From NCBI RefSeq assembly GCF_016865425.1, contig NZ_AP023355.1, positions 842,198-866,197 of the forward strand: DNA of 24,000 bases, given 5' to 3'. The notes beneath the pieces are model-generated. The model was not told where the DNA came from. It ran no database searches and was given only the letters and a program-made list of their open reading frames with translations. This DNA comes from Actinocatenispora thailandica (lineage in GTDB: Bacteria; Actinomycetota; Actinomycetes; Mycobacteriales; Micromonosporaceae). Below, in pieces: positions 7,609-22,700 of this stretch; the stretch's first letter is position 1, and each line of letters begins with the position of its first letter. The translations under genes were made by a program, and so were the position numbers.

Positions 7609-8494
7609 CGGCGTCCCTGTTCCGCCCCGGCAGCCGGCCGGAGCGCAGATCGTCGAGCCGGCTGGCCAGGGTGTCGGCGCGCAGCCCGCGCACCAGCACC
7701 TCCAGCGCCGGCTCGATGCTGGTGCCGAGGAAGAACTCCTCGGCCGGGTGGCTGAGGTACAGCCGGCCCTGCTCGTCGACGATGAGAATGCTGCCCTCGT
7801 CGCCGGTCCGGCCGACCGGGAACGTGCGGATGCCGAGCCGACTCGCAAGCCGGAACGCCGACACCTCGACCAGGCGCACATCGGCCGGGAAGAAGTGGAT
7901 CGGAAACGCGCCCACCTGTTCGCCTCGCCCGTAGGGCACCAGGTCGAGCAGGCCGAACTCGCGGTACAGGTCCCGAGCGGCGGGGAACGGTTCGTGTCGC
8001 TGGCCGCGCCCGTCGGTCTGGGCCGCGAACTCGGCCAGCCACGGGTCGACCCGGGCCGCCGCATCCCTCCCCGGCAGCCAACCGGCCGCCAGCAGGGCCG
8101 CTTCGACGTCTCGCTGGAACCGCGGGTGGTGCACGTCGATCTCGTCGAACCGGTCGGCGTCGAACGGGATCGTCGGCGGCTCGTTGGACAACTCGCCCCG
8201 CACCAGTGTGGCCGGCGTGCTCTCCCGGGACTGCCGCTGCTCGTACTCGGCGCGCAGTCGTTTCTCGATCCGACCGGACTCGAACAGCGCCTCCCGGGCC
8301 GCGAGCCGCACGTCCTCCGGGACGGGCGGGCAGCGGTAGCCCTGCTCGACGATGTGGTCCAGGAACGCCGGCTGCGGCGCGAGCCGCCGGTGTTCCAGCT
8401 GGTACGTCGAGATCGTGGACCAGATCCAGACCCCGTCGGTCAGGTACTGCACCGGGACCGCCCAGCGCAGCGCGGGGTTGGCGGGATCGAACAC
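7601..8494 (-). CDS. SUKH-3 domain immunity-type protein with a conserved actinobacterial N-terminal domain (5' end uncertain, see finding)
   Basis: Track ORF with GTG start at 8494. The C-terminal ~170 aa show the SUKH-3 pattern (AGWLPGRD...FGLLDL......FFPADV....LGIRTFPVGRT.....ILIVDEQGRLY...FLGTSIEPALEVLVRG). The frame stays open and protein-like up to 8697 with no ATG/GTG/TTG, so the real N-terminus is probably longer. Confidence 0.7.
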   Translation of the reverse strand: MFDPANPALRWAVPVQYLTDGVWIWSTISTYQLEHRRLAPQPAFLDHIVEQGYRCPPVPEDVRLAAREALFESGRIEKRLRAEYEQRQSRESTPATLVRGELSNEPPTIPFDADRFDEIDVHHPRFQRDVEAALLAAGWLPGRDAAARVDPWLAEFAAQTDGRGQRHEPFPAARDLYREFGLLDLVPYGRGEQVGAFPIHFFPADVRLVEVSAFRLASRLGIRTFPVGRTGDEGSILIVDEQGRLYLSHPAEEFFLGTSIEPALEVLVRGLRADTLASRLDDLRSGRLPGRNRDADG

Positions 8495-8745
8495 GTCGTA
8501 GGTGCGCTCGTCGGAGGGGACCAGCAGCGCACCGGACTGCAGGTAGCGCAGCAGCCGGTCGCGTTCCTCGTCGTCCTCGATCCAGGGCCGGCTGGCCCAC
8601 GGGCGCGGCCGATCGTGCTCGTCGAAGCCGTCCGCGACCGGGGCGAACCGGAACCCGGCGACCTGTTCCGGGGGGTGATCGGGAGCGGTCGAGGCGGTCG
8701 CCAGCCGGCGTCACCCGATGCCGACCCCTGTGCGCGCTCTGCCAT

Positions 8746-8905: not shown

Positions 8906-9622
8906 GTGTTCACGCTGGACGAGGCTCGGCGCATCGCTGCCGCCTGGGTCGACCGTGGGCGGCCGGACGGTGCTCGCTGGCAGGCTCGGGTGCACGAGTT
9001 CGAACTGGGCTACGTGATCTGGGCCGTCCCGGCCGACGGCGACCGGCGCGAGGTCGGTGCTGGCCGTGGTGTCGTGGACAGGATGACCGGCGAGCTGTCG
9101 CTGTGGCCATCGCTGCCCGTGTCGAGCATCGTCGAGATGTTTCGTGCCGAGCGTGCCCGGGAGATCCCCGCTCCACGCACCTGGGACCCAGCCACCCAGG
9201 CCCGCCGCGACCTGGCCCGCGCCGGGTTCCCGGAGCACGTCACCCACCTGACGCTGGCGGATGGGCGAGCCCAGATCAGCCGCAGCACGAAGGGTGACGG
9301 TGAGCTCAACCTGCATCCGCTCGTCGCCGCGGCGCTGGCGGAGCTGCCGCCAGGATCCCGGGAGCGGGCCGCCGAGAGGTGCTCGGAGGTCGCGGCCTTC
9401 TCCGACGTGCTGCACCGGGCCGACACCCAGCGCCAGGCGGACCGGCGGCCGACGCTGTCGCTCGACGAGGTACGAGCCACCCTGTTCCGCGGCGCCGAGA
9501 TCGTCACCTACCGGGTGTGCGAGCCGGGTGACGAACTCGGTGGTCGGACCGTGCCGCCCTGCCTGGCCTGCCAGTACCTGCTCGGGTGGTTCGGCTTCGA
9601 GATGGCGGGGGGACGGCGGTGA
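8906..9622 (+). CDS. YrhB-like (immunity-type) N-domain fused to YwqJ-like deaminase-fold domain with intact CxE / PCxxC motifs
   Basis: Track ORF 8810..9622. I prefer GTG 8906 (VFTLDEARRIA...) because GGGAGGGG lies 4-5 nt upstream. The N-half has GYVIW.....G.GVVDRMTGELS.WPSLPV. The C-half has LADGRAQISRST....LHPLV....ERCSEVAAFSD (Cys 9380-9382, Glu 9386-9388) and PPCLAC (9557-9571). This motif order matches module 2 of the giant gene. Confidence 0.7.
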   Translation: MFTLDEARRIAAAWVDRGRPDGARWQARVHEFELGYVIWAVPADGDRREVGAGRGVVDRMTGELSLWPSLPVSSIVEMFRAERAREIPAPRTWDPATQARRDLARAGFPEHVTHLTLADGRAQISRSTKGDGELNLHPLVAAALAELPPGSRERAAERCSEVAAFSDVLHRADTQRQADRRPTLSLDEVRATLFRGAEIVTYRVCEPGDELGGRTVPPCLACQYLLGWFGFEMAGGRR

Positions 9623-10128
9623 CCGCGCGGTTCGGCCGTACCGCCGAGACGGCGTTGCGGACCGCCGGCTGGACCCCCGGCCGGGACGTGTCGGCCGCGA
9701 CCGCCGAGGCGATCCGGCGCACCGGTGAGCGGATCGGCGCAGACGGTGCCCGGCTGCGGGCGTTCCCGGCGGCGGTCACGGCGCTGAACGAGTTCGGCGG
9801 GCTGGCGATCGTCCCCAGGGAGCCGGGCGTCGATCAGGTACCGCAGCCCTTCGCGTTCGATCCGTTGCTGGCGCCGTTGTGTGCCGAGACCCTCGCCGAC
9901 GTGTCCACCGTCCTCGGTCTGCCGCTCTACCCGCTCGGCGTCGAGGGTGACGTCGCCGCGCTGCTGGCGATCGACGAGCAGGGCCGGGTGTTCTCCATCG
10001 ACCACACCGGCGAGTGGTTCCTCGGTGCGACGGTGGACGCGGCGATCGAGACGCTCGTCGCGGGGCGCCGACCGCCCCGGCTGCGGGACGACGGGACCTG
10101 GCCGCCGGCGGTTCAGCCCGCCTCGTAG
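9619..10128 (+). CDS. SUKH-3 domain immunity-type protein
   Basis: Track ORF 9586..10128. GTG 9619 overlaps the upstream stop (GTGA), which implies translational coupling. The product shows RTAGWTPGRDVS....ALNEFGGLAI......FAFDP.....LGLPLYPLGVEG....LAIDEQGRVF.......FLGATVDAAIETLVAG. It is paralogous to the C-half of 7601..8494. Confidence 0.8.
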   Translation: MTARFGRTAETALRTAGWTPGRDVSAATAEAIRRTGERIGADGARLRAFPAAVTALNEFGGLAIVPREPGVDQVPQPFAFDPLLAPLCAETLADVSTVLGLPLYPLGVEGDVAALLAIDEQGRVFSIDHTGEWFLGATVDAAIETLVAGRRPPRLRDDGTWPPAVQPAS

Positions 10129-10747: not shown

Positions 10748-12430
10748 CTACTGGGTGGCGCCGAGCAGGTCCTCCAGCTCCAGGGTGCGCAGATCGTCGC
10801 GGGACGGCATCCGGCCGAGCCTGCGCAGCCGGCCGGACTGCGCCTTACGCATGCTTTCCAGCAGCTTGCGGGCTTCGCGGGCGTTGCCGAAGTTCTGCCC
10901 CATCTGGATCTGGCTGAACCATTCGTACAGCGCGTCGTCCAACCCGTCGCCGAGCAGGTAGTCGTCGTTCTTGGCGATGCGGCTGACGATGAGCAGCAGT
11001 TCCTTGGGCGTGTAGTTCTCGAACTCCAGCGTCTTGGCGAACCGGGAGGCCAGACCGGAGTTGGCGTCGAGGAACTCGGTCATCTCGTTGGTGTAGCCGG
11101 CGACGATCACCGCGATCTCGTCACGGTGGTCTTCCATCAGCTTCACCAGGGTGTCGATGGCCTCCTGACCGAAGTCGCCGCTGCCGCCCCCGGATGCCCG
11201 GGAGAGCGTGTACGCCTCGTCGATGAACAGCACGCCGCCCATCGCCTCCTCGATGACGGCCGAGGTCTTCTCCGCGGTGTGGCCGATGTACTGCCCGACC
11301 ATGTCTCGGCGGGCGACCTCCTTGAACTTGCCGGCCGGGAGCACGCCGAGCGCCTTGAGCAGTTGCCCGTAGATGCGGGCGACGGTGGTCTTGCCGGTAC
11401 CGGGGGCGCCGGTGAAGATCAGGTGGTGGCTGACCGCGCCGACCGCGAGGCCCGCGTTGCGGCGCCACTCGTTGACCTGGATCTCGTCGATCAGCGCCCG
11501 GACCTCGGCCTTGACCGAGGCGAGGCCGACCATGGCGTCCAGGTCGGACAGCAGCCGATCGATCTGGGCGGGGTCCTGCTGGGTGGCGCCTTCCAGCGCG
11601 GCGACGCCGACCTTCGGTCGGTGTGCGGTGGACAGCGGCTCCCGGATGCTGGGGTTCGCGCCCTCGTCGACGTGGATGCCCGGGCTGGCGGTGTTCTCGA
11701 CCCGGCACTCGTCGACCTTGCCGCCACAACCCCGGCCGAACATGATCCCGACGCCCTGAGTGTCGTGGATCCAGGAGCCGTCGATCGTGGGTGAGCTGCC
11801 GTGGGCGATGGAGATGCCCGCGTCGCCGGTCTGCGAGATGTCGCAGCGTTCGATGGTCGGACGCCCGGACTGGTAGACGTACACCCCACGGAAGCCGCAC
11901 CCGGTGATGGTCGAGTTACGGATCGTGGGGTCGGCGCCGAGTCGGACGATGATTCCGTCGTCCGCGACGTTGGTGATCTCGCACTTGTCCAGCAGCCCGC
12001 CGGCGTCCTCGATGACGAAGCCGTACTGCCCGCCGGTCACCTTCGTGTCGGCGGCCTCCAGGCGCGTCCGGTTCGTCACGTTCACCGCGGGCGCGTACCC
12101 GGCCTGCAGAGTGCACTTCTCCAGCGAGATGCGGCCGCCGCGGACATCGACGGTGGCCCGGTCCGCGGACCGCAGGGACAGCCCGCGAACGGTCACCTCG
12201 CAGTCGCGCGCCTGCAGCGTCGGCAGCCCGGCCGAGGTCGAGTCGACCGTCACCGACCCCGCGTCGCCGGACGCCACCAGGGACACCCGCAGGCCGGACA
12301 GCACCAGCGCCTCCGGATACTCACCCGGAGCGATCGAAATGGTGTCGCCGGGCGAGGCGATCTCCAACGCATCGCGGATCGTGGGGTAGGCCCCGGGCTG
12401 CTGGGTCGAGACGACAAGGTTGCGTGCCAT
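10748..12430 (-). CDS. Right-handed beta-helix repeat domain fused to CbbX/SpoVK/EccA-type AAA+ ATPase
   Basis: Track ORF 10748..12655. I prefer ATG 12430 (MARNLVVSTQQPGAYPTIRDALE...) with GGCGGAG upstream; the earlier residues are Arg/Pro junk. The N-terminal ~330 aa have repeated G..V.......I..C.I pectin-lyase-like beta-helix rungs. The C-half has Walker A FTGAPGTGKTTVARIYG (~11380-11412), Walker B VLFIDEAY (~11210-11233), IVAGY and the SRF..T..F..Y tail typical of the CbbX/SpoVK clade. Confidence 0.85.
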   Translation of the reverse strand: MARNLVVSTQQPGAYPTIRDALEIASPGDTISIAPGEYPEALVLSGLRVSLVASGDAGSVTVDSTSAGLPTLQARDCEVTVRGLSLRSADRATVDVRGGRISLEKCTLQAGYAPAVNVTNRTRLEAADTKVTGGQYGFVIEDAGGLLDKCEITNVADDGIIVRLGADPTIRNSTITGCGFRGVYVYQSGRPTIERCDISQTGDAGISIAHGSSPTIDGSWIHDTQGVGIMFGRGCGGKVDECRVENTASPGIHVDEGANPSIREPLSTAHRPKVGVAALEGATQQDPAQIDRLLSDLDAMVGLASVKAEVRALIDEIQVNEWRRNAGLAVGAVSHHLIFTGAPGTGKTTVARIYGQLLKALGVLPAGKFKEVARRDMVGQYIGHTAEKTSAVIEEAMGGVLFIDEAYTLSRASGGGSGDFGQEAIDTLVKLMEDHRDEIAVIVAGYTNEMTEFLDANSGLASRFAKTLEFENYTPKELLLIVSRIAKNDDYLLGDGLDDALYEWFSQIQMGQNFGNAREARKLLESMRKAQSGRLRRLGRMPSRDDLRTLELEDLLGATQ

Positions 12431-12561
12431 GGCTCCGCCGGTGGAAGGGTTGACTTCTGCGCACACTATCTCAGGGGGTCCACGCAGGCGCGGGACGCGG
12501 TGACTTCCTGGCCACGCCCTAGAGTACTGACGACGCAACAGCTTGAGGAGACGCGGACGAC
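12431..12561. promoter_or_regulatory. Divergent intergenic region between the AAA+ gene (-) and the SseB-like gene (+)
   Basis: 131-bp gap between two divergent starts. Inferred from arrangement only; no box-level call. Confidence 0.3.
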
Positions 12562-14100
12562 GTGGATCTCGGCGAGGACGAGCAGCCGCCGGCCTGGCAG
12601 CCGGCGAACGACGTCGAGCGGCTGATGCTCGACGCCCTGGTGCGCAACCACTCACAGGACTACTTCCGGCTGGTGGCGACCGCCCCGCTGTACCTGCCGG
12701 TCTTCCTGGGCGACGCCAACACCGACCGCCAGCGGGTCGTGGTGAAGACCATCTCCGACGCCGAGCACCTGCTCGTGTTCACCTCGGTGCGGGGGCTCAC
12801 CGGGTACGTCGAGGCCGGCTACACGCCCGACAGTCGCCCCGACGGGTACGCCCAGACCAGCTACGAGGAGTTGGCCGCCCGGCGGCCGGAGCCGGAGTGG
12901 CGGCTGGCCATCAACCCGGGCCAGCCGATCGACGCCTACGTCGAGATCGACGCGGTGATGCACGCCGCGCTGGGTGACATCCAGATCCCGCTCGCGGACG
13001 AGCTGATCGACCCGGCCGGGGTCGGCGAGCGCGCGCCGATCCCGGCGGACTTCGTCCCAGCGAACGAGGCGGAGCGGGCCATCGAGTACGGACTGGTCCA
13101 CCGCGACATCGACGTCGCGATCGACGCGTTGGTCGTCGCGGACGTGCTGGTCGCCACGGCGGAGCAGGCCCGGCCGGACGCGGCGCTGACCGACCCGGAC
13201 TTCCCGTGGCAGCTGGAGTCGATCGACGACATCCCGTCGATCTGCGTGTTCACCTCGCAGCAGCGGCTGACCGAGGTGCTTCCACCGGACACCCCGGCGT
13301 ACCCGACGACGCTGGTCAAGCTGGCGCTGGCCTGGCCGGACGAGGACTGCCAGCTGATGGTCAACATCGGTTCGGCGATCGAGCTGGCGTTCGAGGGCGC
13401 GATGATCCCCTCGTTCGTGTCCTGGGCCTCGGACCTGATGGAGCGGGTCGAGTCCGGCGAGTACGCGGAGCCGGCCGATGCCCGGTTGGCGGACGCGGCC
13501 GGCACCGGTGTGGTGGTCGGAGGGCATGCGGTGGACGCGGTGATGCCGCCGGCGATCGGCGACCTGGCGCCGCCGGTCGGTGCCGCGGCGCCGGTGGCCG
13601 ACCCGGTGCTGTTCCAGAAGGTGCTCACGCCCGAACAGGTCCAGGCGTACCTGCGGGGCGGTGACCGGCGTGTCGCGGGCTTCGTCCACCCGTACGAGAG
13701 CGTGCGTGAGCTGACCACGCCACAGCAGCTCTACACCGGGCTCGGCCTGCTGCACGATCGCACCCCGTTCCGCGTCGACGACGAGGAAGTGCACGTTCTG
13801 CGGTGGACTGCCTACTGTCCGGAGCTGTATCGGCTCGCCATCGGTGGACGTGACGAACGGACCCGAGCCGCGGTGGATGGCTGGGTCGTGGCGCCGGCTC
13901 CGTTCCTGGGCAGTGGGATCGCGCCGGGCAGCGCCGGGGCACCGGAGTTCAAGGTGGACAGCGTCGAGTTGCCACACGGCGCGCAGCTGTGCCGGCTGGA
14001 CCGGTACGGGCGGCAGAGCGAGGTGGCGAACTTCGACGCGGACACCGGGACCTGGGCCGCCGCCGTCGGACGGCCGAGCTGGACGGAGGACGTTCGATGA
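12562..14100 (+). CDS. Tandem SseB-like (secretion-chaperone-like fold) domains + uncharacterised C-terminal domain
   Basis: Track ORF with a GTG start. Two copies of the SseB N-domain pattern: PANDVERLMLDAL....FRLVATAPLYLPV......LLVFTS and PANEAERAIEYGL....ALVVADVLVAT......ICVFTSQQRL. The C-terminal ~170 aa (VLRWTAY...GWVVAPAPFLGSGIAPGS..PEFKVDSVELPHGA.L.RLD) match nothing I can name. Confidence 0.75.
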   Translation: MDLGEDEQPPAWQPANDVERLMLDALVRNHSQDYFRLVATAPLYLPVFLGDANTDRQRVVVKTISDAEHLLVFTSVRGLTGYVEAGYTPDSRPDGYAQTSYEELAARRPEPEWRLAINPGQPIDAYVEIDAVMHAALGDIQIPLADELIDPAGVGERAPIPADFVPANEAERAIEYGLVHRDIDVAIDALVVADVLVATAEQARPDAALTDPDFPWQLESIDDIPSICVFTSQQRLTEVLPPDTPAYPTTLVKLALAWPDEDCQLMVNIGSAIELAFEGAMIPSFVSWASDLMERVESGEYAEPADARLADAAGTGVVVGGHAVDAVMPPAIGDLAPPVGAAAPVADPVLFQKVLTPEQVQAYLRGGDRRVAGFVHPYESVRELTTPQQLYTGLGLLHDRTPFRVDDEEVHVLRWTAYCPELYRLAIGGRDERTRAAVDGWVVAPAPFLGSGIAPGSAGAPEFKVDSVELPHGAQLCRLDRYGRQSEVANFDADTGTWAAAVGRPSWTEDVR

Positions 14101-14468: not shown

Positions 14469-14575
14469 ACTGCCGTTCACTTGCTCGCGGCGATTACCGT
14501 TTTCTCGGATAGAGTCGGCATCATTTCTCGTCGATGCGTGCATCGCGACGCGAGGAACGTCCGAGGAGGTGCTGG
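14469..14575 (+). promoter_or_regulatory. Candidate promoter/5' leader of the YbaB-like / EspC-like / giant-toxin operon
   Basis: This is the most AT-rich stretch of the window (…cgattaccgttttctcggatagagtcggcatcatttctcgtcgatg…). It has a TANNNT-type -10 candidate TAGAGT at 14510-14515 and the RBS GAGGAGG at 14563-14569 before ATG 14576. No convincing -35 sits at 17±1 spacing. Confidence 0.35.
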
Positions 14576-15013
14576 ATGATCGACGGGCCGGACCGGCCGC
14601 AGCGACCGGTCGACCACCCGGACTGGAGCGCGCTGCACGGCGCGTTCTCCGACCTGCGCAAACAGGTCGCCCGGGCGAAGGATGTGCAGAAGAAGGTCTT
14701 CCATCTCACGGCCACCGCGTGGTCGCCGGACCGGATGATCAAGGTCGTCGTCGGCCCGCGGGGCCAGCTCGTCGACCTGGACATCGACCCCCGGGTCTAC
14801 CGGCAGCCCAACTCCAAGGCGCTGGCCCGGTCGATCCTGGAGACCAGCCGGCAGGCGATCGAGCAGATCGCCGTGCAGACCGAGCAGATCCTCGACGAGG
14901 ACGTCCCGGCCGACCTGCGCATCGGCCGCACCGGTGCGGTCGATTTCCGCGCCGTGCTGAAGAGCCACGACGCCGAACTCCCGAAGAAGGTCGACGCGGA
15001 GGAGGACGACTGA
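14576..15013 (+). CDS. YbaB/EbfC-like small protein (type found in ESX-associated operons)
   Basis: Track ORF 14534..15013. I prefer ATG 14576 (MIDGPDRP...) with GAGGAGG 7 nt upstream. The core MIKVVVGPRGQLVDLDIDPRVYR.PNSKALARSILETSRQAIEQ fits the YbaB/EbfC pattern. Acidic tail. Confidence 0.75.
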   Translation: MIDGPDRPQRPVDHPDWSALHGAFSDLRKQVARAKDVQKKVFHLTATAWSPDRMIKVVVGPRGQLVDLDIDPRVYRQPNSKALARSILETSRQAIEQIAVQTEQILDEDVPADLRIGRTGAVDFRAVLKSHDAELPKKVDAEEDD

Positions 15014-16167
15014 TGGGCGAGGGCACGTTCGTCCAGATGGACGGCGACGCAACCAACTCCGCCGGCGCCCGGTACGCGCTGGCCGGTGACCGGTTGACCG
15101 CCAGAGGGTCGGCGGTGCGGTCCGGGATCGAGTCGGCCGAGGGACCGGCGCCCTGGGGCGACGACAAGTTCGGTAAGGCCTTCCTGGAAAAGTACGGCAA
15201 CCCGCAGGACGGCGACGAGACGCTGACCTTCATGACCGACGGTGGCGACCAGGTCAGTACGGTCGGCAACGCGGTGCAGTGGGCGGCCGTCGACGGAATC
15301 GACGCGGACTCGCAGGCCAAGCAGGCGATCCACTCGCTCGAGACCGACAAGCCGAAGGTGGCGGGCTCGCGCAGCGGCAGCATCATGACCGCGACCCGGA
15401 CCCGCTCCGAGCGGACCGGCTCGTCCGGCAACGGCACCGGGTCCGGGTCCGGCGGAAGCCGAACCACCGGAGCGGTCGACGCGAGGTACGCGACCGCCGA
15501 GGCCACCGGCGGCGAGGGCACCGACAGCCGGCAGCCGGACCGCCGGCTGTCGCTCGCCAGTGTCGCCACCGGCGGCATGACGATGCTGCATGCGGTGGAC
15601 GAACCGACCCCGCACGAGGGCGACCGACGGATGGCGCACGAGGTCTTCCGTTCCGGCGTCGGCTGGGTCACCGACGGTGTGTTGCCGGAGGGCTCCGAGC
15701 GGCCCGGCGACGGTTCCGATCAGGTCGAGTTCCGGCGTGCCACCGCCGCGGAGTTCACGCCGGTGGACGGCGCGTCGGCGCGGGCCGGCGAGTTGCACGC
15801 GGTGTACCGGCAGGACGGCGCACCGACCGACGGGGCCGCGCCGATGCACCCCGCGGGCTCCCCGCAGCCGGGATCCGGCTGGTCGGCCGGCCATGGCTAC
15901 CCGGAGTTCCGCGCCGTGGACCAGACCGGCGGGGTGGTCGGGCAGGCGCAGGACGTCGTGTCCACCGACCAGCACGGCGGAGTGCAGGGCATGGAGCACG
16001 CCGAGTTCCGGGTGGACGGTGCCGGCCAGCCCGTCGACGGAGCCGAACGGTACGTGCAGGAGGTCTACCGGCAGGACGGCGGCTGGACCCCGACGGCGGC
16101 GGTCGCCGATCCCCAGGGAATGGTCCGGGCCGAGGGAACGGTGCTGCCGGGGGCAGAACAGGTCTAG
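15013..16167 (+). CDS. EspC/WXG-like N-terminal helical domain protein with Gly/Ser linker and repeated C-terminal motifs
   Basis: Track ORF 14440..16167. ATG 15013 overlaps the upstream stop (TGATG). The N-terminus has FVQMDGDATNSAGARYALAGDRL......PWGDDKFGKAFLEKY, the W-G-x-D..G..F...Y pattern of small T7S-associated proteins. The C-half carries two copies of EF..VDG......VYRQDG (identical 15-mer taccggcaggacggc at 15805 and 16066). Confidence 0.7.
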   Translation: MGEGTFVQMDGDATNSAGARYALAGDRLTARGSAVRSGIESAEGPAPWGDDKFGKAFLEKYGNPQDGDETLTFMTDGGDQVSTVGNAVQWAAVDGIDADSQAKQAIHSLETDKPKVAGSRSGSIMTATRTRSERTGSSGNGTGSGSGGSRTTGAVDARYATAEATGGEGTDSRQPDRRLSLASVATGGMTMLHAVDEPTPHEGDRRMAHEVFRSGVGWVTDGVLPEGSERPGDGSDQVEFRRATAAEFTPVDGASARAGELHAVYRQDGAPTDGAAPMHPAGSPQPGSGWSAGHGYPEFRAVDQTGGVVGQAQDVVSTDQHGGVQGMEHAEFRVDGAGQPVDGAERYVQEVYRQDGGWTPTAAVADPQGMVRAEGTVLPGAEQV

Positions 16168-16191
16168 CCCGCCCCAGGACGGAAACACAAC

Positions 16192-16222
16192 CTCGGGCGG
16201 CCGTTCTGGAGGGCCGCCCGAG
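16192..16222 (+). other. Perfect 11-bp GC-rich stem-loop between the EspC-like gene and the giant gene
   Basis: ctcgggcggcc (16192-16202), a 9-nt loop gttctggag, then ggccgcccgag (16212-16222). No U-tract follows it, and the giant gene's RBS GGAGAGGAGG (16239-16248) lies 17 nt downstream. It is more likely a processing, stability or attenuation element than a full terminator. Confidence 0.5.
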
Positions 16223-16254
16223 TCATCACATCTGCAGCGGAGAGGAGGTAGCCG

Positions 16255-16740
16255 GTGGGCGGCTCGTACGGCGCCAACGACTACCTCTTCGACCCCATCC
16301 TCGAATTCTTCCGCGAGGTCGAGGAGTGGGTGCCCGGTGTGCTCGGGGACGTCCTGCGGTGGTTGATCGAGATCCCCGCCGGCTCCGAGCACGGGCTGGC
16401 CGACGTCGGCGACTCCCGCACCAAGGCCGGCGACACCCTGATGAACGCGCTGCAGGACCAGTCGGTCCCGGCCGCGACGATCTACGAGAAGTACGTCGGC
16501 GACGGCGCGCCGGCCGCGTTCGCCGGCCGCGACGGGGATCTGCGCGACCAGTTGCAGTCGATCGCCCAGCAGCAGTACGACAAGGCCAAGATCGCCTACA
16601 ACACCTCCAGCAGCATGGAGATGTCGAAGTTCATGGCCGCCACCGACCTGTACATGTTGGGGCAGGCCATCTACGCGGCGATCATGACGGCGGTCTCGTT
16701 GCCGCCGTTCGGCGGGCTGCTCAGCATCGGCGAGGTCGGC
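16255..16740 (+). other. N-terminal WXG100-like/T7S-targeting-type helical domain of the giant protein
   Basis: YEKYVGDGAPAAFAGRDGDLRDQLQSIAQQQYDKAK (Y-x-G-x-x-A-x-A-F at 16492-16521) occupies the position of the WxG turn between two predicted helices. A hydrophobic helix-like stretch follows (LYMLGQAIYAAIMTAVSLPPFGGLL). The assignment rests on this pattern only. Confidence 0.45.
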
Positions 16741-19700
16741 GGTGCGATGGCGGCCGCCGAGGCGGGGATCAAGAAGGCGCTCGCCGAGTTCCTGGAGAAG
16801 ATCCTCGGTGAGGACGCCGTCAAGAAGATCAGCGAGCAGGGGCTGAAGAAGGCGGTCACCAATCCCAGCGTGCTGGGCCACCTGGCGACCGCGCCGATCA
16901 AGGTGATTCCGACGCTCGGCAAGGAGGCCGTCGAACACGCCCCGGACCTGTACAAGTTCGGCAAGAACGCGGTCAAGGACCTCGGCCCGAAGATCAAGTC
17001 CTCGGTGCCGAAGATCGTCGACCACATGCCGAGCAAGGGCGACATCGGCCACTACATCGCCAACGGGGCAAGGAAGAGCGGCGACGCGTTGAAGTACGCG
17101 GCCCGGCACCCGATCGAGACGGTGGGGCGTGGCGCCCGGGCCGGCGGCCGGGAGGTCTGGGACGGCGTCAAGGCGACCGGGCGTGGCCTGGGACGCGGGG
17201 CGAAGACGGCCTGGGGAGGGGCGAAGAGCGCCGGCCGGTTCGCCTGGGACTCGCGCGGCGGCCTCAAACCGAGCAACCTGGCCGCCCGGCACGCGGCCAA
17301 CCACGCCGCCGAACGGTACGCGTCCCGGACCGCGGCGCGGGAGGCGCTGAACGCCGGAAAGGGCTTCAAGGAAGCGATGCGGGCCTCGGTCCGCGAGCAG
17401 GCGGAGAACGCGGCCGCCCGCAGCGCCGCGCGCACCGAGGCACGCAACGCCTTCCTCAAGGAGTACGGCGAGCGCGGCCTGGCCGGTAAGGCCGGCATGC
17501 TCGGGAAGGAGTTCGGCAAGGACGCGCTGATGAAGGGCAAGAACTTCGCCGCCTTCACGCTCAAGACCCAGGGCGTCGTCGACGCGTACCAGGTCGCGAC
17601 CGGACACATCAGCGTCGGCGATGGTCTGAAGAACCTGTGGAACCAGGAGAGCGGCGCGCTCGTCACCGGGGTGCTCGGCGCACCGCTGAGCTTCGGGCGG
17701 CAGGGGATGCTGCCCGAGATCTCCGGCATGGTCGGCGGCACCGTGGCGTTCGATGCGGCCAGCGCCTACAGCTTCAAGGACCACCAGTTCCACTGGGTCG
17801 ACGAGCAGGGGCACGAGAAGTCCGGCGGGTTCGGTGCCTTCTGGGGCCAGGAGAAGCACAACGCCGTGCACGCCGCCGCGTACGGCGCGATGGGCGGCGC
17901 CCAGCACATGCGGCTCAAGGCGGAGGAGTTCACCGCCCAGCAGGACCTCGCGACCGACCGACCGACGACGGCGTTCACTTCCCGTACCGGTAGCCCGGAC
18001 GTCCGGACGCCGGAGAGCCGGACCACCGCCCCGGAGGCCACCCGGACCAGCACCCAGGGCAGTGGCAGCCAGGTGCGCGGCGACGGCGGCGGGCCACGGA
18101 CCCGCTCGTCGACGCAGGAGTCGAACGGACCGTCCCAGCGGGAGCGCACGCGGTCCGGCGAGCCGTCGGAGTCGCGTGGCAGCGAGTCGGGCGACAACGG
18201 CTCGCGCGAGGCCCCGGAGCGGCGCACCGTGGTGCGTCCGAGGCAGCCCGAACCGGCAACCGGGCGGCAGGATCCGTCGCAGGGTTCGTCGGCCGAGAAC
18301 CCGACCCATCGGGTGGCGCAGCGCCCGGAGCAGGCGGCCGGCGACCCGCAGCACGCCGGCGGTGGTCCCGGCCGCGGTTCCGAGGCGCCCGACCAGCCCC
18401 GCCAGCACGAGCAGGGCACCAACCAGCCGCACGAGGCCGGGCAGGGCGACAGCCAGCGCGGCGACGACGGCCGGCCGCACGAGGGCCAGTCGGGCGACGA
18501 CGGTCGGCAGGGCGACAACCAGCAGGGCGATGGTCGGCAGGGGGACGGCCAGTCGGGTGACCACCGGCAGGGCGACGATCAGCGGCAGCCGGACGGCCAG
18601 CAGGGCGACGGCACGCGGCACGGCGACCAGCAGACGGAGCACCGCAGCTCGGAGGACCGGACACAGCGTCGGATCCGGCTCGGATCGGCCGACCCGGACG
18701 CGCACACCCAACACCGCACCCTGGGCGAGGACCTGGATCTGCTCGACCGCGGTCTGGCCAACCGGAAAGAGCTGGTCGACGTCGACATGGCGGAGGTCGT
18801 CCGGCACGCGGCGGCCGGCGAGGCGGCGCCGACGGTGCGGGTCGGTGGCCGGCTGCACGAGGTGCCGGAGCTGACCCGGCTGCGCGACACCCTGGTGGAA
18901 CACTTCACCGTCGAGGGGCCACACGGCGAGCGGGTCCCGATGGGCGACGACGCGGCGATCCGCGAGCACCTGCGGGAACTGCAGGATCAGGTGCGCGCCG
19001 AGCTGAACGAGGTCCGCACCGCCGACCCGGCCACGCACAGCACCGAACAGACCCGCGATGCCGCGGGCTTCCCCACCGAGTCCACCGACCGCCGTCCGAG
19101 CTACCAGAGCCACCCGACCGACGGCAACCGGTACAGCCGGAGTGATCTGGATGCGCAGCCGGACCCGTCCCGGGCGACGGATCGCGAGGCGGCCCGCGAC
19201 GAGTCCCAGAAGTTCGCCGACGACGTGCTCACCGAGCACACCCGTCGCTGGCTGCTCGACCCGTCGGGCGAGACCGTCGGCGCGCAACCGACCCGGGGGG
19301 CCACGCTGGTCGCCCCGGAGGGCGTGTTCCACAGCACCGGCTGGGAGGGCCGTACCGGCGAGGCGCCGGAGCCGGGGGTCGCGCCATCGGTGCACGACGT
19401 GGTCCAGGAACTCACCTACACCCCGCCGGCGGAGGTCGCCGAGGTACAGCGGCGCGGCGCCGAACTGCGCGACGCGACCGCCGAACTCGACCTGACCAAC
19501 AGCCGCTACGAGGCGGTGAACGAGGGCATCCGCGGCCTGGAGGACCGGATCGCCGCCAAGCACCAGGAGATCGCCGACCTGCGGGCGGAGAAGCAGCGCA
19601 CCATCGGCCGCGGCTACGACGGGCAGCGGATCCGGGCCGCCAACGAGGCCTACGATGCGCGGATCCGGCAGGCGGGCGAGGACCTGCGGGCGATGCAGGA

Positions 19701-22700
19701 CGAGCATCGGGTGCGGGCCCGGCAGGACCTCGCCCGGGCGGCCCGCGACCGCGCCATCGCCACCGTGCGGCACGAGAACGCCGAGCGGCAGTACGCGAGG
19801 GCGGAGAAGCGGGCCGACCGGCGCCACGCGCCCGACGGGTTGCTGCGGCACCTGCCGAGCAACGCCAGCCAGGCCGAGATCGCGGTCATGTCCGACTACG
19901 CGCGGCACGTCGAGCGGCAGATCGACCCGGCCACGGTCGTCGCGGACGAAGCCCGGTACGGGCAGGAGGACTTCCAGCGGCAGGCGCTCGGCGACGACTA
20001 CGCGGCGGTGCGCGCGGATGCCCAGCGGGACGCCGGTGGCGACCCGGCCGGGGTCCGCGAGCGGATGGCCGATGCCACCCGGGAGGCCCACCAGCGTCGG
20101 GTCCTCGGCGACGGCTACGACTCGCTGCGCGCCAAGGCCGAGCAGGGCGGTCGGGACGCGGCCACGGTCGAGGACCGGATGGCACGGCACACCCACGTGG
20201 CGGAGAAGCTGGCCGACGTGCGGGTGCACGCGTACGAGATCGGCGGCGACCGGCACGGCGAGATCTCCCATCCGGACCCGGTCACCGAGCGGAGCCTGGA
20301 ACGCGCCGGGATCGACCACGACCGGCTCGCCGACGTGCTGGACGGCGCACTGCTCGCCGATCCGGAACACCCGAACCGCATCGTGCTCGGGCGGGCCGGC
20401 AGCGAGCTGCGCGAGTTCGGCGAGCAGGTGCCGGACCACCCCGACCACCTGGTGATCGTCGCCGAGCGCGGCCCGAACGGCCTGCGTTTCGACGGTCGCG
20501 ACCTGTCCCATGCCGAGCTGGTCAAGGTGCTCCGAGACGTCGGACTGCCGCGGCCCGACCAGCGGATCGTGCTGGTCACCAGCGACGGCGGCAGCGTCGC
20601 CCGCGATCTTGCCCGGGAGTTCCGCACCGAGGTGTACGCGCTGCCGGAGCACGCCACGCTCGCCGGCGACGGCACGTTCGGCGTCGAGCGGCGGGCCGGC
20701 GGCGAGGAGGTGCCGGCCGGCGACGGCTGGCGACTTCACGAGCCGTACGGCACCAGCACCGAGGCGGACCTGCACCGCGAGTACCAGGACGCCCGCGCCG
20801 AGGCACACGAGCGCGGCTGGGAGGGGTACGAGCAGCGCGAGACCCGGCACGAGCCGAGCCAGCGCCCCGACCGCGACCAGCGACCGATCCGCCTCGCCGG
20901 GAACGGCCAGAGCGACCTGCACCGCGATCTGTCCGAGGAGGGCACCGGACGGCTGAAGACGCTGTCCAACGCCCGGATCATCGACCGGGTCGTGGGCGAT
21001 CTGGGCCTCGACCGGCACCGCCCGTTGCGGCTCGACGAGCAGCGCGTCGCCGAGATCCTGAAGACGGAGGTGGACGAGCGCGACGACCCGGCGCGGCGCC
21101 GGCTCCAGCAGATCGTGGAGCAGGAGTTCACGCATCTGGACGCGGACGGCAACCGGACGCCGAACAGCACCACCGAGATCCGTCAGCGCATCGCCGAACT
21201 GCGAGCCGAGGCACGCCAGGAGTACGCGGATGCGCGGGCCGCGGGCGACACCCGCGCCGGCACCCCGGAGTACGGCGACCGGTTGGAGCAGGTCGGCGGG
21301 TCCGGCGGCGAGGGGCACGGGTACACCCGGTCGGAGCCGCCGTCGAGGCACCGGGATCCGAACAGCCCGGCGGATCGTGCCGATGCCCGCGCCAGGGCGG
21401 TGAAGTTCGCCGACGACGTGCTCTACGCCGATCTGCGGGCGTTCGCGGAACACCCGGACGATCCGCCGGCGCGGCCGTCGATGGCGACGGTCATCATGAG
21501 CCCGGACGGCACGTTGCACTTCAGTACCTCCCGGACGGGTGTCGCGGGTGATGGCGTGCCGGCGGGGACACACCCGCTGATCGCCGCGGACTACCACCTC
21601 GTCGAGCACCAGCTCACCGGACACGGCAACGGTGAGGCAGAGTTCTGGGTCGGCGACGCCAACCACGGCGGGAGCCCGGTCTGGTTCAAGGAGTGGAGCC
21701 AGCGCAACCCGGAACTGGCGGAACTGGCCAAGCAGCACGACGCGGCTCTCGACCGCCGCCAGGGGGTGCTGGACAGCCTCAGGAAGCTCCCGGCCAGCGC
21801 GCCGGAGCAGGCCCGGACGCGGCTGACCGAACTGGCGACCCAGCGGGAGACCGAGGCCGGGCAGATCGACCGGGCCCTGCAGGAGAAGGCGGCCGAGCAG
21901 GGCAAGCAGCAGGAACTCGCCGACTACAAACGGTTCAAGAGCCTGTACGACGCGGAGCGCCCGGACGAGGCCGGTCGCCGGCAGGAGTGGTTGAACCGCC
22001 GGTTGGAGATCGCCGAGCGGTACACGCCTGGCCGGGGGCACGGCCGCTGCTCCGAGGTGTCCGGGCTGTCCGACCATGCCAAGCGGCTCGACCGCGAGTA
22101 CGACCAGTTGGGCCGGCGGGACGCGGCCCGGGTCGAGCACGCCAAGGAGTCGGTGCAGCGGCGCAACCTGGGCGAGCTGTACGACCGGCTGAAGGGGTCG
22201 GGTGCCACCGACCAGGAGCTGGCCCGGCACAGCTACGTCGCCGAACGGCTGCGCGAGATCTCGATCACCGCGCACCAGATCGGCGGCACCTTCCAGGTCG
22301 AGCACGGTGAGTACCGCGCGCCGTGCACGAGCTGTGAGCATGCGGAGCGGAATCTCGGCATCGTTCCGGATCACCTGCGGGAGATCGCCGACCGGGTGGC
22401 GCTGGGTGAGCCCAACAAGCTCGTGCTGGCCGAGCCGGGCACCGATCTCGCCCGGTACGCGGCCAACATTCCCCGGCACCCGGACGCGTTCGTCCTGGTG
22501 GCGCACGGCGAGCCGAACGCACTGACGTTCGACGGGTACCGGCTGAACCCGCGCGAGGTGCACGACCTGCTCGTCCAGGCGGGCTGGCGACCGGACCAGC
22601 GGATCGTCCTGCTCGGCTGCCGGGGCGGCGAGGTCCGCTACGACTGGCCGGGCAGCTTCGGCGCCGAGCTGCACAACGAGACCGGAGTGCCGGTCGTCGT

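Follow-up and report, generated by a model that had tools for sequence, protein, structure and literature searches.

A putative type VII polytoxin of Actinocatenispora thailandica with an intact and a degenerate deaminase-protease module

Introduction

The closest described relatives of the deaminases analyzed here are B. subtilis YwqJ and the YwqJ-like clade (PF14431; Iyer et al. 2011, PMC3239186; PMC13648612). [quoted passage not shown] Comparison of this clade with the Actinocatenispora polytoxin revealed several shared features: (i) a Gx[CH]xE motif in helix 2 and a PCxxC motif in helix 3, (ii) a truncation after helix 3 / strand 4 and an insert that separates strand 3 from CxxC, and (iii) type VII delivery via a WXG-type N-terminus with a SUKH-3 immunity neighbour. 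The polytoxin departs from the clade in several respects: its strand-2/helix-2 insert is larger by about 135 residues and forms a helical array, another helical insert comes after helix 2, and the deaminase lies inside the polypeptide instead of at its C-terminus, joined directly to a protease domain. The native sequence of its module 2 scores below the Pfam threshold.

DddA and other interbacterial deaminase toxins, of the SCP1.201-like clade, are used as base editors. DddA-type toxins are likewise secreted bacterial toxins of the CDA fold; however, they belong to another clade, carry [HD]xE in helix 2, and are compact and C-terminal, with neither a protease fusion nor a large helical insert.

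The polytoxin class was described in 2011-2012 by Aravind's group, catalytically dead caspase-like repeats included (PMC3239186, PMC3482391). It comprises polytoxins that join deaminases with CPD-like and papain-like peptidases (PMC3239186) and caspase-like repeat arrays in which some copies are catalytically dead (PMC3482391). The Tox-Caspase polytoxins, for example that of Streptomyces flavogriseus with its caspase-like repeat array (PMC3239186, PMC3482391), resemble the Actinocatenispora protein in combining several unrelated toxin domains in a WXG-led polypeptide, in placing clan-CD His/Cys domains internally between payloads, with some repeats lacking catalytic residues, and in uniting a deaminase with CPD-like and papain-like peptidases. 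Unlike in these proteins, the repeat in Actinocatenispora is a two-domain module of deaminase and protease, one copy is inactivated in both domains together, and each unit is bordered by a conserved Leu motif. The toxin design has already been described, and the present case is an unusual variant of it, not a new kind of system.

The C80 domains of MARTX and TcdA/TcdB (3eeb, 3pa8, 3ho6; PMC2900308, PMC2780291) provide the best structural match for the His/Cys domain. As in that domain, His-Gly and Cys each follow one of two successive strands, the host protein is a giant multi-effector polyprotein, and the proposed P1 residue is Leu, with a small residue at P1'. The Actinocatenispora domain differs from them in lacking a sequence-level C80 match, in its length (about 165 aa versus 200-250), and in TM-scores of about 0.4; moreover, InsP6 would be absent from bacterial targets, and the secretion route resembles type VII rather than type I or a holin-dependent one.

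Results and discussion

Polytoxin gene and its domain order

The analyzed stretch of DNA, hereafter the window, spans 24,000 nucleotides. Both modules lie in a single plus-strand gene (16255..24000) that has a GTG start with a 5' ribosome-binding site, GGAGAGGAGG, and continues past the window end. The peptides are encoded in plus frame 1; from 16252 onward, this frame has no stop up to the end of the window (2583 codons, GC3 0.93). A minus-strand ORF at 14797-23418 (2873 aa) was rejected as a high-GC shadow. The protein of this gene, P0001, has at least 2941 aa, with residues 2-2582 identical to the window translation, and its A. comari ortholog (L001) exceeds 3879 aa.

The WXG100_2-like domain at the N-terminus, of the kind carried by type VII secretion substrates (16285..16854, plus strand, aa 12-201), was identified by its similarity to the N-terminus of the homolog P0002 (BLASTP E=6.7e-24), which itself matches Pfam PF25547 (E=6.7e-12); the Pfam search gave no direct match for the N-terminus of the window protein. 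The window contains no gene for a T7SS core component such as EccC; the sole related gene found there encodes an EccA-like AAA protein. A low-complexity disordered linker rich in G, Q, D, and R (17932..18801, plus strand) is the fastest-evolving part of the protein, with dN/dS of 0.60; all dN/dS values given here come from a single species pair. Downstream of the modules, Gln_amidase and PP2C domains are encoded. The start of the former, a papain-fold glutamine deamidase toxin domain (Gln_amidase / Tox-PL1; 23908..24000, plus strand), is seen before it runs off the window end, and PF15644 matches both P0001 (E=7.7e-15) and the A. comari protein (E=1.6e-15).

The predicted domain order is a WXG100-like export domain, the disordered linker, two tandem modules of about 700 residues each, the glutamine deamidase, a long coiled coil, and a PP2C phosphatase, and the region under study would form the middle of a giant polytoxin that this soil actinobacterium secretes by a type VII system. 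A type VII polytoxin with one live and one dead deaminase-protease module, self-release of its parts, and retention of the dead copy is the explanation that we favour, with a probability of about 0.7.

Two paralogous modules

The initial annotation had described paired deaminases, one intact and one degenerate. The coordinates given there for the motifs are exact: module 2 has RCSEVSGLSD at 22045-22074 (CSE 22048-22056) and APCTSCEH at 22318-22341, and module 1 has SQAEIAVMSD at 19867-19896 (QAE 19870-19878) and SHPDPVTE at 20266-20289. The residue-level alignment of the two copies was borne out as well: residues 903-1543 and 1643-2248 are paralogous (BLASTP E=3e-36, 28% identity, far above chance), and their motif columns align unambiguously. 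The paired-deaminase reading itself was replaced, as the unit that occurs twice in the type VII polytoxin consists of a deaminase-type domain and a clan-CD protease-type His/Cys domain of about 165 aa. Each module is a zinc deaminase of the YwqJ clade fused directly to a MARTX/TcdB-like (clan CD) cysteine protease domain. The homolog P0002 has a single module. The subfamily is very rare, with two 50%-identity clusters of the subtype among 1.84 billion representatives.

Degenerate module 1

The deaminase domain of module 1 (19174..20319, plus strand) was delineated by alignments; its spliced sequence matches the Pfam family at only E=0.048. Relative to module 2, His is replaced by Glu (19369-19371) and three Cys by Gln (19870-19872), Asp (20275-20277), and Thr (20284-20286), with loss of the three zinc ligands and of the conserved insert His of the clade. 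The claim that every metal and catalytic position had been replaced holds for the three zinc ligands, but not for the catalytic Glu of CxE, E1209 (19876-19878), which is retained here and in A. comari. The first Cys is replaced by Gln in one species and by Arg in the other, so the replacement residue is not conserved. The following CPD-like clan-CD domain (20320..20805, plus strand; jackhmmer domain E=9.5e-53, alignment) is degenerate too, with His replaced by Glu (20464-20466) and Cys by Ser (20581-20583); module 1 is inactivated in both of its domains.

Module 1 is still under purifying selection, weaker than that on module 2: pN/pS is 0.38 and 0.16, respectively, both below 1 (difference p=0.002), and for module 1 the departure from neutrality is significant (p=1e-10), in agreement with the earlier view of a maintained inactive paralog. 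Since module 1 is inactivated yet maintained, a non-catalytic role is plausible. In the favoured reading it is an internal duplicate of old date, now devoid of the zinc ligands and the protease dyad, which the weaker selection would keep as a non-catalytic part, most likely a structural spacer or a peptide-binding or substrate-presenting element.

Alternatively, module 1 could be functionless, a decaying duplication relic tolerated as a spacer and constrained by the need for an open frame and a soluble, exportable polyprotein. The loss of every conserved catalytic or ligand position except the Glu, six in all, the variable residue at the first Cys, the 2.4-fold weaker constraint compared with module 2, and the sufficiency of one module in P0002 all fit such decay. 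However, the pN/pS value lies well under the 0.60 of the disordered linker, neither species has acquired a frameshift or stop since the inactivation, the domain cores are more conserved than the inserts, and the boundary motifs around module 1 are kept. We regard decay without function as possible but rather doubtful.

His/Cys protease domain and boundary motifs

The intact CPD-like clan-CD cysteine protease domain of module 2 (22369..22896, plus strand) contains His2085 (22504-22506) and Cys2123 (22618-22620). In its AF2 model (pLDDT 86.9, pTM 0.85), His46 stands at a strand end and is followed by Gly, and Cys84 follows the next strand. Foldseek comparison of the model with PDB placed C80 CPDs of MARTX, TcdA, and TcdB at ranks 1-10 and in 13 of the 15 top matches (probability up to 0.99), followed by CHAT, caspase, legumain, and gingipain; the TM-scores are modest (0.35-0.42), and Pfam Peptidase_C80 does not match the domain. 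The best matches of the predicted structure thus place the domain closest to the MARTX/TcdB autoprocessing cysteine protease. The His/Cys dyad is retained in 12 of 15 copies of the domain. Other WXG100_2 proteins carry this domain beside ART, RelA_SpoT, and kinase payloads, and it also caps RHS toxins.

The motif R-x-[IV]-R-L-[GAS] occurs three times on the plus strand, as RRIRLG (18667..18684; kept in A. comari and also preceding the module of P0002), RPIRLA (20881..20898), and RKVRLS (22933..22950), each time at a module boundary and against 0.05 occurrences expected by chance for a motif that was defined post hoc and has two paralogous copies among its three. It is conserved in A. comari and P0002 and may be a cleavage site. 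The module 2 protease would cut the polyprotein at these motifs, which flank both modules, probably after the Leu, and free the payloads. Leu is the only residue after which the V. cholerae CPD cuts (PMC2780291).

The His/Cys domain could instead be a toxin itself, a protease attacking proteins of the target cell. In P0006 and P0008 it forms the C-terminal tip after the RHS motif DPxGL, which is a toxin position, and Zhang et al. consider C-terminal caspase-like domains to be probable toxins (PMC3482391). This is unlikely for the present protein, where, as in P0002-P0005, the domain lies inside the chain and is found repeatedly between payloads, a position assigned to processing peptidases (PMC3482391); its best structural matches are autoprocessing CPDs, and Leu-containing motifs flank the modules.

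Helical inserts

Alignment located helical inserts on the plus strand at 19417..19845 in module 1 and, together with the AF2 model, at 21616..22017 in module 2, where a second, smaller one lies between helix 2 and strand 3 (22105..22245). The main inserts exceed those of compact YwqJ proteins by about 137-144 aa, and the module 2 insert forms four or five helices in the model (aa 1809-1923). The helical insert of about 130 aa first noted in both copies is thus real; its heptad character is significant in module 1 (aa 1083-1110; 0 of 300 shuffles reach the score) but not in module 2 (37 of 300). Its position had been thought unusual, but this site is already described as the hallmark insertion of the YwqJ clade, here extremely enlarged: the usual strand-2/helix-2 insert would have grown into a helical hairpin array of about 135 residues. 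Within each module, sequence change is fastest in the inserts (dN/dS 0.41-0.43; 0.41 in module 2).

The dead and the live deaminase could also associate physically, possibly via these inserts, to form the active enzyme or its substrate-binding surface, but this is distinctly unlikely. Enzymes of the CDA fold are as a rule oligomeric, and pairings of an active with an inactive domain are found repeatedly across the superfamily: a dead paralog stands beside a live one in E. coli-type dimeric cytidine deaminase, with its zinc-less C-terminal domain, in APOBEC3G, and in ADAT3 with ADAT2. Plant Des/Cda proteins, whose second domain is inactive, are a further case (PMC3239186). The insertion at the same site in both copies, the heptads of module 1, and the purifying selection on it would agree with pairing. 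In those tandem deaminases, however, the domains adjoin each other or shape the active site through obligate dimerization, whereas about 730 residues, including a protease domain and a likely cleavage site, separate the Actinocatenispora cores; furthermore, the inserts evolve fastest and share little sequence, the P0002 homolog has a single module, and compact YwqJ toxins are active without a dead partner. Such pairing is close to the scaffold or pseudo-enzyme role suggested in the initial annotation.

Module 2 deaminase and its genomic neighbourhood

The intact deaminase domain of module 2 (21367..22368, plus strand) retains the insert His (21571-21573), GxCxE (CxE 22048-22056), and PCxxC (22321-22335), its three Cys being Cys1933, Cys2025, and Cys2028. 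Profile searches confirmed the proposed YwqJ-like lineage. The native sequence matches PF14431 in two collinear stretches (20.6 bits, E=5.5e-4), below the gathering threshold of 25.9, which is passed only after removal of the ~135-residue insert (37.0 bits, E=4.8e-9, one stretch, HMM positions 16-131 of 138). Comparison of the spliced profile with the YwqJ family alignment by hhalign gave a probability of 89-94% (E=2e-7 to 3e-6), and all motifs align by MAFFT with nine bona fide YwqJ proteins in four collinear blocks (b1-b2, His helix, GxCxE-SD, and b3...PCxxC). The element order in the AF2 model of 340 residues, which is of moderate quality (pLDDT 75, pTM 0.59) and whose input alignment presupposes YwqJ homology, is b1-b2-[His helix + helical insert]-helix2(CxE)-[helices]-b3-[hairpin]-helix3(PCxxC)-b4, in agreement with the published description of YwqJ (PMC3239186). 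The dN/dS of the domain is 0.09-0.10. We infer that it is live; it would be the toxic payload, acting on single-stranded DNA cytidines by analogy with B. subtilis YwqJ.

A fortuitous likeness, with CxE and PCxxC stemming from another zinc-binding or helical domain, would suit the sub-threshold native score, a Foldseek search of the 340-residue model against PDB that returned nothing significant (best E=1.8, scattered weak cytidine and blasticidin-S deaminase matches only), and a whole-library phmmer search that retrieved no YwqJ proteins, but is highly improbable given the four blocks shared with true YwqJ proteins, the coverage of almost the full HMM after splicing, hhalign E=2.6e-6, and the retention of the motifs in three lineages at dN/dS of about 0.1. 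In addition, the type VII N-terminus, the neighbouring SUKH-3 gene, and the presence of a bona fide YwqJ gene at this locus all fit a deaminase.

The candidate immunity protein for this deaminase is a long SUKH-3 protein encoded nearby (7604..8710, minus strand; Pfam SUKH-3 E=8.5e-31), which would neutralise the module 2 deaminase in the producer. It is 38% identical (E=4e-61) to the product of the SUKH-3 gene adjoining the P0002 toxin, and the immunity link is based on synteny of the SUKH-3, YbaB, small-partner, and giant genes in two distant genomes. The YbaB/EbfC-family gene (14534..15013, plus strand; Pfam E=1e-11) is conserved directly 5' of the toxin operon and is syntenic in L002. The small-partner gene (15013..16167, plus strand; GC3 0.91) encodes a WXG-like N-terminus with WGDDKFG that is homologous to the product of the 113-aa gene preceding P0002 (E=8e-7).

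The polytoxin gene

All peptides described in the initial annotation fall in frame 1 of the plus strand, which is open from 16252 to the end of the window (2583 codons, GC3 0.93). The gene starts at GTG 16255 with a GGAGAGGAGG ribosome-binding site in front of it, and its product is identical to the database protein P0001 (at least 2941 aa); its ortholog in A. comari (locus L001) is 88% identical and longer than 3879 aa. The opposite strand contains a stop-free ORF of 2873 codons (14797-23418), antisense to most of this gene, that was rejected as a gene, the GC3 peak lying in plus frame 1. In a window with a G+C content of 72%, this ORF is a high-GC shadow of the plus-strand gene and a trap for gene calling based on ORF length. 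A scan of genomes for relatives found A. comari alone, and a metagenome scan for more members of the subfamily found none.

The protein shares a homologous N-terminus (E=6.7e-24) with P0002, a homolog with a single module, whose own N-terminus matches the Pfam family WXG100_2. Past the end of the window, the protein contains a papain-fold glutamine deamidase (Gln_amidase), followed in the A. comari ortholog by a long coiled coil and then a PP2C phosphatase. A single polypeptide combines a deaminase-type domain, a clan CD-type protease domain, Gln_amidase and, in the ortholog, PP2C. Taken together with the gene neighborhood, this domain content makes the protein a type VII polytoxin, in which, as described by Iyer et al. 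(2011), unrelated catalytic domains of toxin type are joined in one secreted chain.

Assignment of the deaminase domain

The Pfam family YwqJ-deaminase (PF14431) has a gathering threshold of 25.9 bits. The whole polytoxin matches it below this threshold (E=0.31), as does native module 2 (20.6 bits, E=5.5e-4, two collinear stretches). After removal of aa 1789-1922, a segment missing in compact YwqJ proteins, module 2 matches in a single stretch covering HMM positions 16-131 of 138 (37.0 bits, E=4.8e-9). Similarly spliced, P0002 reaches 22.8 bits, under the threshold, and module 1 reaches 14.3 bits (E=0.048). In hhalign comparisons with a YwqJ family alignment seeded with the bona fide YwqJ gene at 8906-9619 (Pfam E=4.6e-20) and its homologs, the spliced module profile matched with a probability of 89-94% (E=2e-7 to 3e-6), whereas the unspliced profile matched in the CxE-to-PCxxC half alone (probability 51%). 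A direct YwqJ assignment of module 1 was rejected (Pfam E=0.048, hhalign probability 3%), and its membership among the YwqJ-like deaminases is proposed transitively, via module 2.

In a MAFFT alignment of the modules with YwqJ proteins, the b1-b2 hairpin, HPL, RCSE..SD, strand 3 and PCxxC are all aligned, and His1774 of module 2 (THPLI) is in register with HPLV, a motif invariant across nine YwqJ proteins. Module 2 has both clade motifs, Gx[CH]xE in helix 2 and PCxxC in helix 3; module 1 has neither. The AF2 model of the module 2 deaminase (pLDDT 75, pTM 0.59) places b1, b2, the His helix and four or five long helices ahead of helix 2, which opens at CxE, followed by four short helices, b3, a short hairpin, helix 3 opening at PCxxC, and a short b4. 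An insert between strand 3 and CxxC is also present in the model (strand 299-304, short bridges 308-317, helix 321-329, model numbering), with PCxxC at the start of the last helix; a truncation after helix 3 and strand 4 leaves a single short strand before the next domain.

A Foldseek search of the PDB with the whole deaminase model gave nothing significant (best E=1.8), and about a quarter of the weak matches are cytidine or blasticidin-S deaminases. Sequence searches of the PDB revealed no relatives of the deaminase, the second domain of the module or the YwqJ profile, and no YwqJ-family structure. The placement of module 2 in the YwqJ-like clade is supported by the spliced profile and the aligned motifs, with these structural comparisons as its weak points, and we infer a deaminase activity for it. 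[quoted passage not shown]

Duplication and inactivation of the module

Comparison of aa 903-1543 with aa 1643-2248 by BLASTP revealed 28% identity over 692 columns (E=3e-36), and the motif columns of the two modules are unambiguously aligned by both BLAST and MAFFT. All four motifs quoted in the initial annotation lie exactly where it placed them. Three motifs distinguish the modules: (i) in helix 2, G-R-C-S-E of module 2 (aa 1931-1935), also found in A. comari and P0002, corresponds to A-S-Q-A-E in module 1, where Glu alone is kept, (ii) in helix 3, P-C-T-S-C (aa 2024-2028) corresponds to P-D-P-V-T, and (iii) at the conserved His of the insert, THPLI (His1774) corresponds to PEPGV, with His replaced by Glu. 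The claim that every metal or catalytic position of module 1 is replaced stands for the three zinc ligands and for the conserved His of the clade, but not for the catalytic Glu, which is retained here and in A. comari.

The duplicated unit is larger than originally described, since each module includes a second, His/Cys domain of about 165 residues directly after PCxxC. The dyad of this domain is lost from module 1 in both species (His to Glu, Cys to Ser), and module 1 as a whole is therefore predicted to be catalytically dead, beyond its deaminase. Overall, the initial observation of paired folds is confirmed, and its interpretation is supported in part only.

A CPD-like protease domain in each module

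In module 2, the second domain reads AFVLVAHGEPN, then 37 aa, then RIVLLGCRGGE. When 1.84 billion cluster representatives were searched exhaustively with phmmer, only nine proteins matched, two of which, the polytoxin itself and P0002 (36% identity), have the deaminase part; the others share the second domain only. Three of these (P0003, P0004 and P0005) carry it twice each, located between domains of the ADP-ribosyltransferase, RelA/SpoT and kinase types, and in two others (P0006 and P0008) it follows the RHS DPxGL motif as the C-terminal tip. Of 15 domain copies, 12 retain both His and Cys. A second copy near the C-terminus of P0002 (aa 2649-2770, locus L002) has lost the His (Glu-Gly) and kept the Cys, one more case within this toxin family of partial degeneration of the domain.

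The domain was modeled confidently by AF2 (pLDDT 86.9, pTM 0.85). In a Foldseek search of the PDB, the top 10 matches and 13 of the best 15 are autoprocessing cysteine protease domains (CPDs) of V. cholerae and V. vulnificus MARTX and C. difficile TcdA/TcdB (E from 9.7e-4, probability up to 0.99, TM 0.35-0.42), followed by CHAT, GPI transamidase, caspase-3, legumain and gingipain. In the domain model, VLVAH46G ends strand 40-48, with Gly after His46, and LLGC84 follows the next strand (78-82). These features of the model indicate a caspase-hemoglobinase fold with a clan CD signature.

The fold and the His-Gly/Cys placement are like those of the peptidase C80 CPDs, whereas neither the window domains (searched to E<=10) nor 13 members of the family (searched to E<=1) match Pfam Peptidase_C80 (PF11713); weak matches to DUF4347 alone were observed in three of the 13 (E=0.013). 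The domain is therefore named CPD-like and assigned to clan CD, and not to C80.

Helical inserts and selection

[quoted passage not shown] The position had been considered odd for a deaminase fold; it is, however, a known insertion hot spot of the YwqJ-like clade, where the insert was suggested to cap the substrate pocket (PMC3239186). The unusual feature is size, which in module 2 far exceeds that of the clade: this insert is about 137 aa longer than usual in YwqJ proteins. A canonical coiled coil was rejected for it, the heptad signal being not significant and the helices broken into hairpins. There is little sequence similarity between the two inserts, or between either of them and P0002, and a Pfam search of inserts and linkers gave nothing credible.

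Selection was estimated crudely by the Nei-Gojobori method from a single species pair, A. thailandica and A. comari. For module 2, dN/dS is 0.09-0.10 in the deaminase core, 0.19 in the protease and 0.41 in the insert; for module 1, it is 0.26-0.40 in the deaminase core and 0.30 in the protease, and the disordered linker has 0.60. In both modules, the insert evolves faster than any other part (0.41-0.43), a pattern that would fit a surface under diversifying pressure, such as a contact with an immunity protein or a target. For pooled domain cores, pN/pS is 0.38 in module 1 and 0.16 in module 2; both values are below 1 (p=1e-10 and p=5e-18, respectively), and they differ from each other (p=0.002). 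In this one species pair, selection on the dead module 1 is relaxed yet not neutral.

Immunity genes and conserved neighborhood

Immediately upstream of the polytoxin gene are a YbaB-family gene and a gene for a WXG-like small partner (15013-16167, plus strand), and farther upstream are genes for a long SUKH-3 protein (7604-8710, minus strand) and a fusion of a WHH (HNH-type nuclease) domain with SMI1/KNR4 (SUKH-1) (6598-7650, minus strand). All of these genes recur beside P0002 in an unrelated genome (L002), where the order of the last two genes is also conserved. The long SUKH-3 protein has an N-terminal extension of about 190 aa and is 38% identical to its L002 counterpart; the WHH-SMI1 fusion is 56% identical. 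The small partner has 384 aa here vs 113 aa in L002, and only the first approximately 55 residues (the WGDDKFG region) are common to both; the remainder is a repetitive extension that has no Pfam match. SUKH-3 is the immunity family published for YwqJ toxins (PMC3239186). The polymorphic-toxin context of the YwqJ clade consists of a T7SS-type N-terminus and a SUKH-3 or Imm6 immunity gene, and the polytoxin has this context, with a type VII-type N-terminus (via P0002 homology) and a SUKH-3 neighbor.

The compact bona fide YwqJ-like deaminase, Athai_07710 (plus strand, 238 aa), is encoded between the gene for the long SUKH-3 protein and the polytoxin operon; it has an N-terminal domain of about 100 aa ahead of the deaminase and no recognizable secretion domain. 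It is directly followed by a SUKH-3 immunity gene (9532-10125, plus strand, E=1.6e-38), and the two form a classical toxin-immunity pair.

Candidate processing sites and proposed mechanism

The motif R-x-[IV]-R-L-[GAS] occurs exactly three times in the 2583 residues, each time at a module boundary: (i) aa 806-811 (18667-18684, plus strand), ahead of module 1, (ii) aa 1544-1549 (20881-20898, plus strand), 28 aa past the module 1 protease domain, and (iii) aa 2228-2233 (22933-22950, plus strand), 15 aa past the module 2 protease domain. For this motif, defined post hoc and with two of the three copies paralogous, 0.05 occurrences are expected by chance, and none of 2000 shuffles reached three. 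It is conserved in A. comari and ahead of the single P0002 module. For the V. cholerae CPD, Leu is the only residue after which cleavage occurs (PMC2780291), and because MARTX and TcdB CPDs prefer a P1 Leu and a small P1' residue, the boundary motifs are candidate autoprocessing sites; their use as cleavage sites is suggestive, a lead and not a result.

Beyond the observed homology, residue losses, selection and synteny, we infer the activities, the cleavage and the role of module 1 as follows. The polytoxin would be exported by a type VII-like route, via its WXG100-like head and small partners, and the live module 2 protease would cut it at the Leu motifs, freeing the live deaminase together with the dead module, as well as the deamidase and phosphatase that lie downstream. 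The freed module 2 deaminase would then damage the nucleic acid of the target, and SUKH-3 would protect the producer.

Rather than a passive spacer, the dead module could be a pseudo-enzyme that is released and works together with the live module, a reading to which we give a probability of roughly 10%. In one version, the modules may pair via their same-site helical inserts, yielding an ADAT2/ADAT3-like heterodimer from one polyprotein cut at RL|[GAS]; in the other, the dead module may act as a decoy that soaks up the SUKH-3 immunity protein of the target cell. Both versions would amount to a novel use of an inactivated warhead copy by the interbacterial toxin that carries it.

Computational work of 2011-2012 had already predicted the class of architecture, the site of the insert and the existence of dead caspase-like repeats (PMC3239186, PMC3482391). 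The polytoxin is a rare, elaborated variant of this described class and does not overturn current understanding; its distinctive features are the huge expansion of the helical insert, the site of which is known, and the duplication of a whole deaminase and protease module, followed by inactivation at both active sites. Bacterial deaminase toxins are the source of base-editing tools, and a YwqJ-clade enzyme with a helical array of about 135 residues at the predicted pocket-capping site could have unusual substrate selectivity or regulation. With one live clan CD protease and several Leu sites, the locus offers a clean natural setting in which to ask whether MARTX-style autoprocessing also operates in actinobacterial type VII toxins, and it allows one to ask what a toxin gains from keeping a module that has lost both active sites.

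Other genes in the window

The immunity cluster and the toxin operon are separated by two genes: one encodes an EccA/CbxX-like protein with a right-handed beta-helix, AAA and AAA_lid_6 (10751-12778, minus strand), and the other an SseB-family protein (12547-14097, plus strand). No gene for the T7SS core ATPase EccC was found within the window. At its beginning are two tandem paralogous gene pairs on the plus strand (2-799 / 3086-4114 and 619-3024 / 3993-6389), each pair encoding a Thr-rich protein of about 340 aa and a protein of about 800 aa. The latter proteins have a WXG/PPE-like helical N-terminus (weak PPE match, E=0.002) and a conserved C-terminus, joined by a long middle region rich in Pro and Ala, and the tandem pairs probably encode further type VII substrates.
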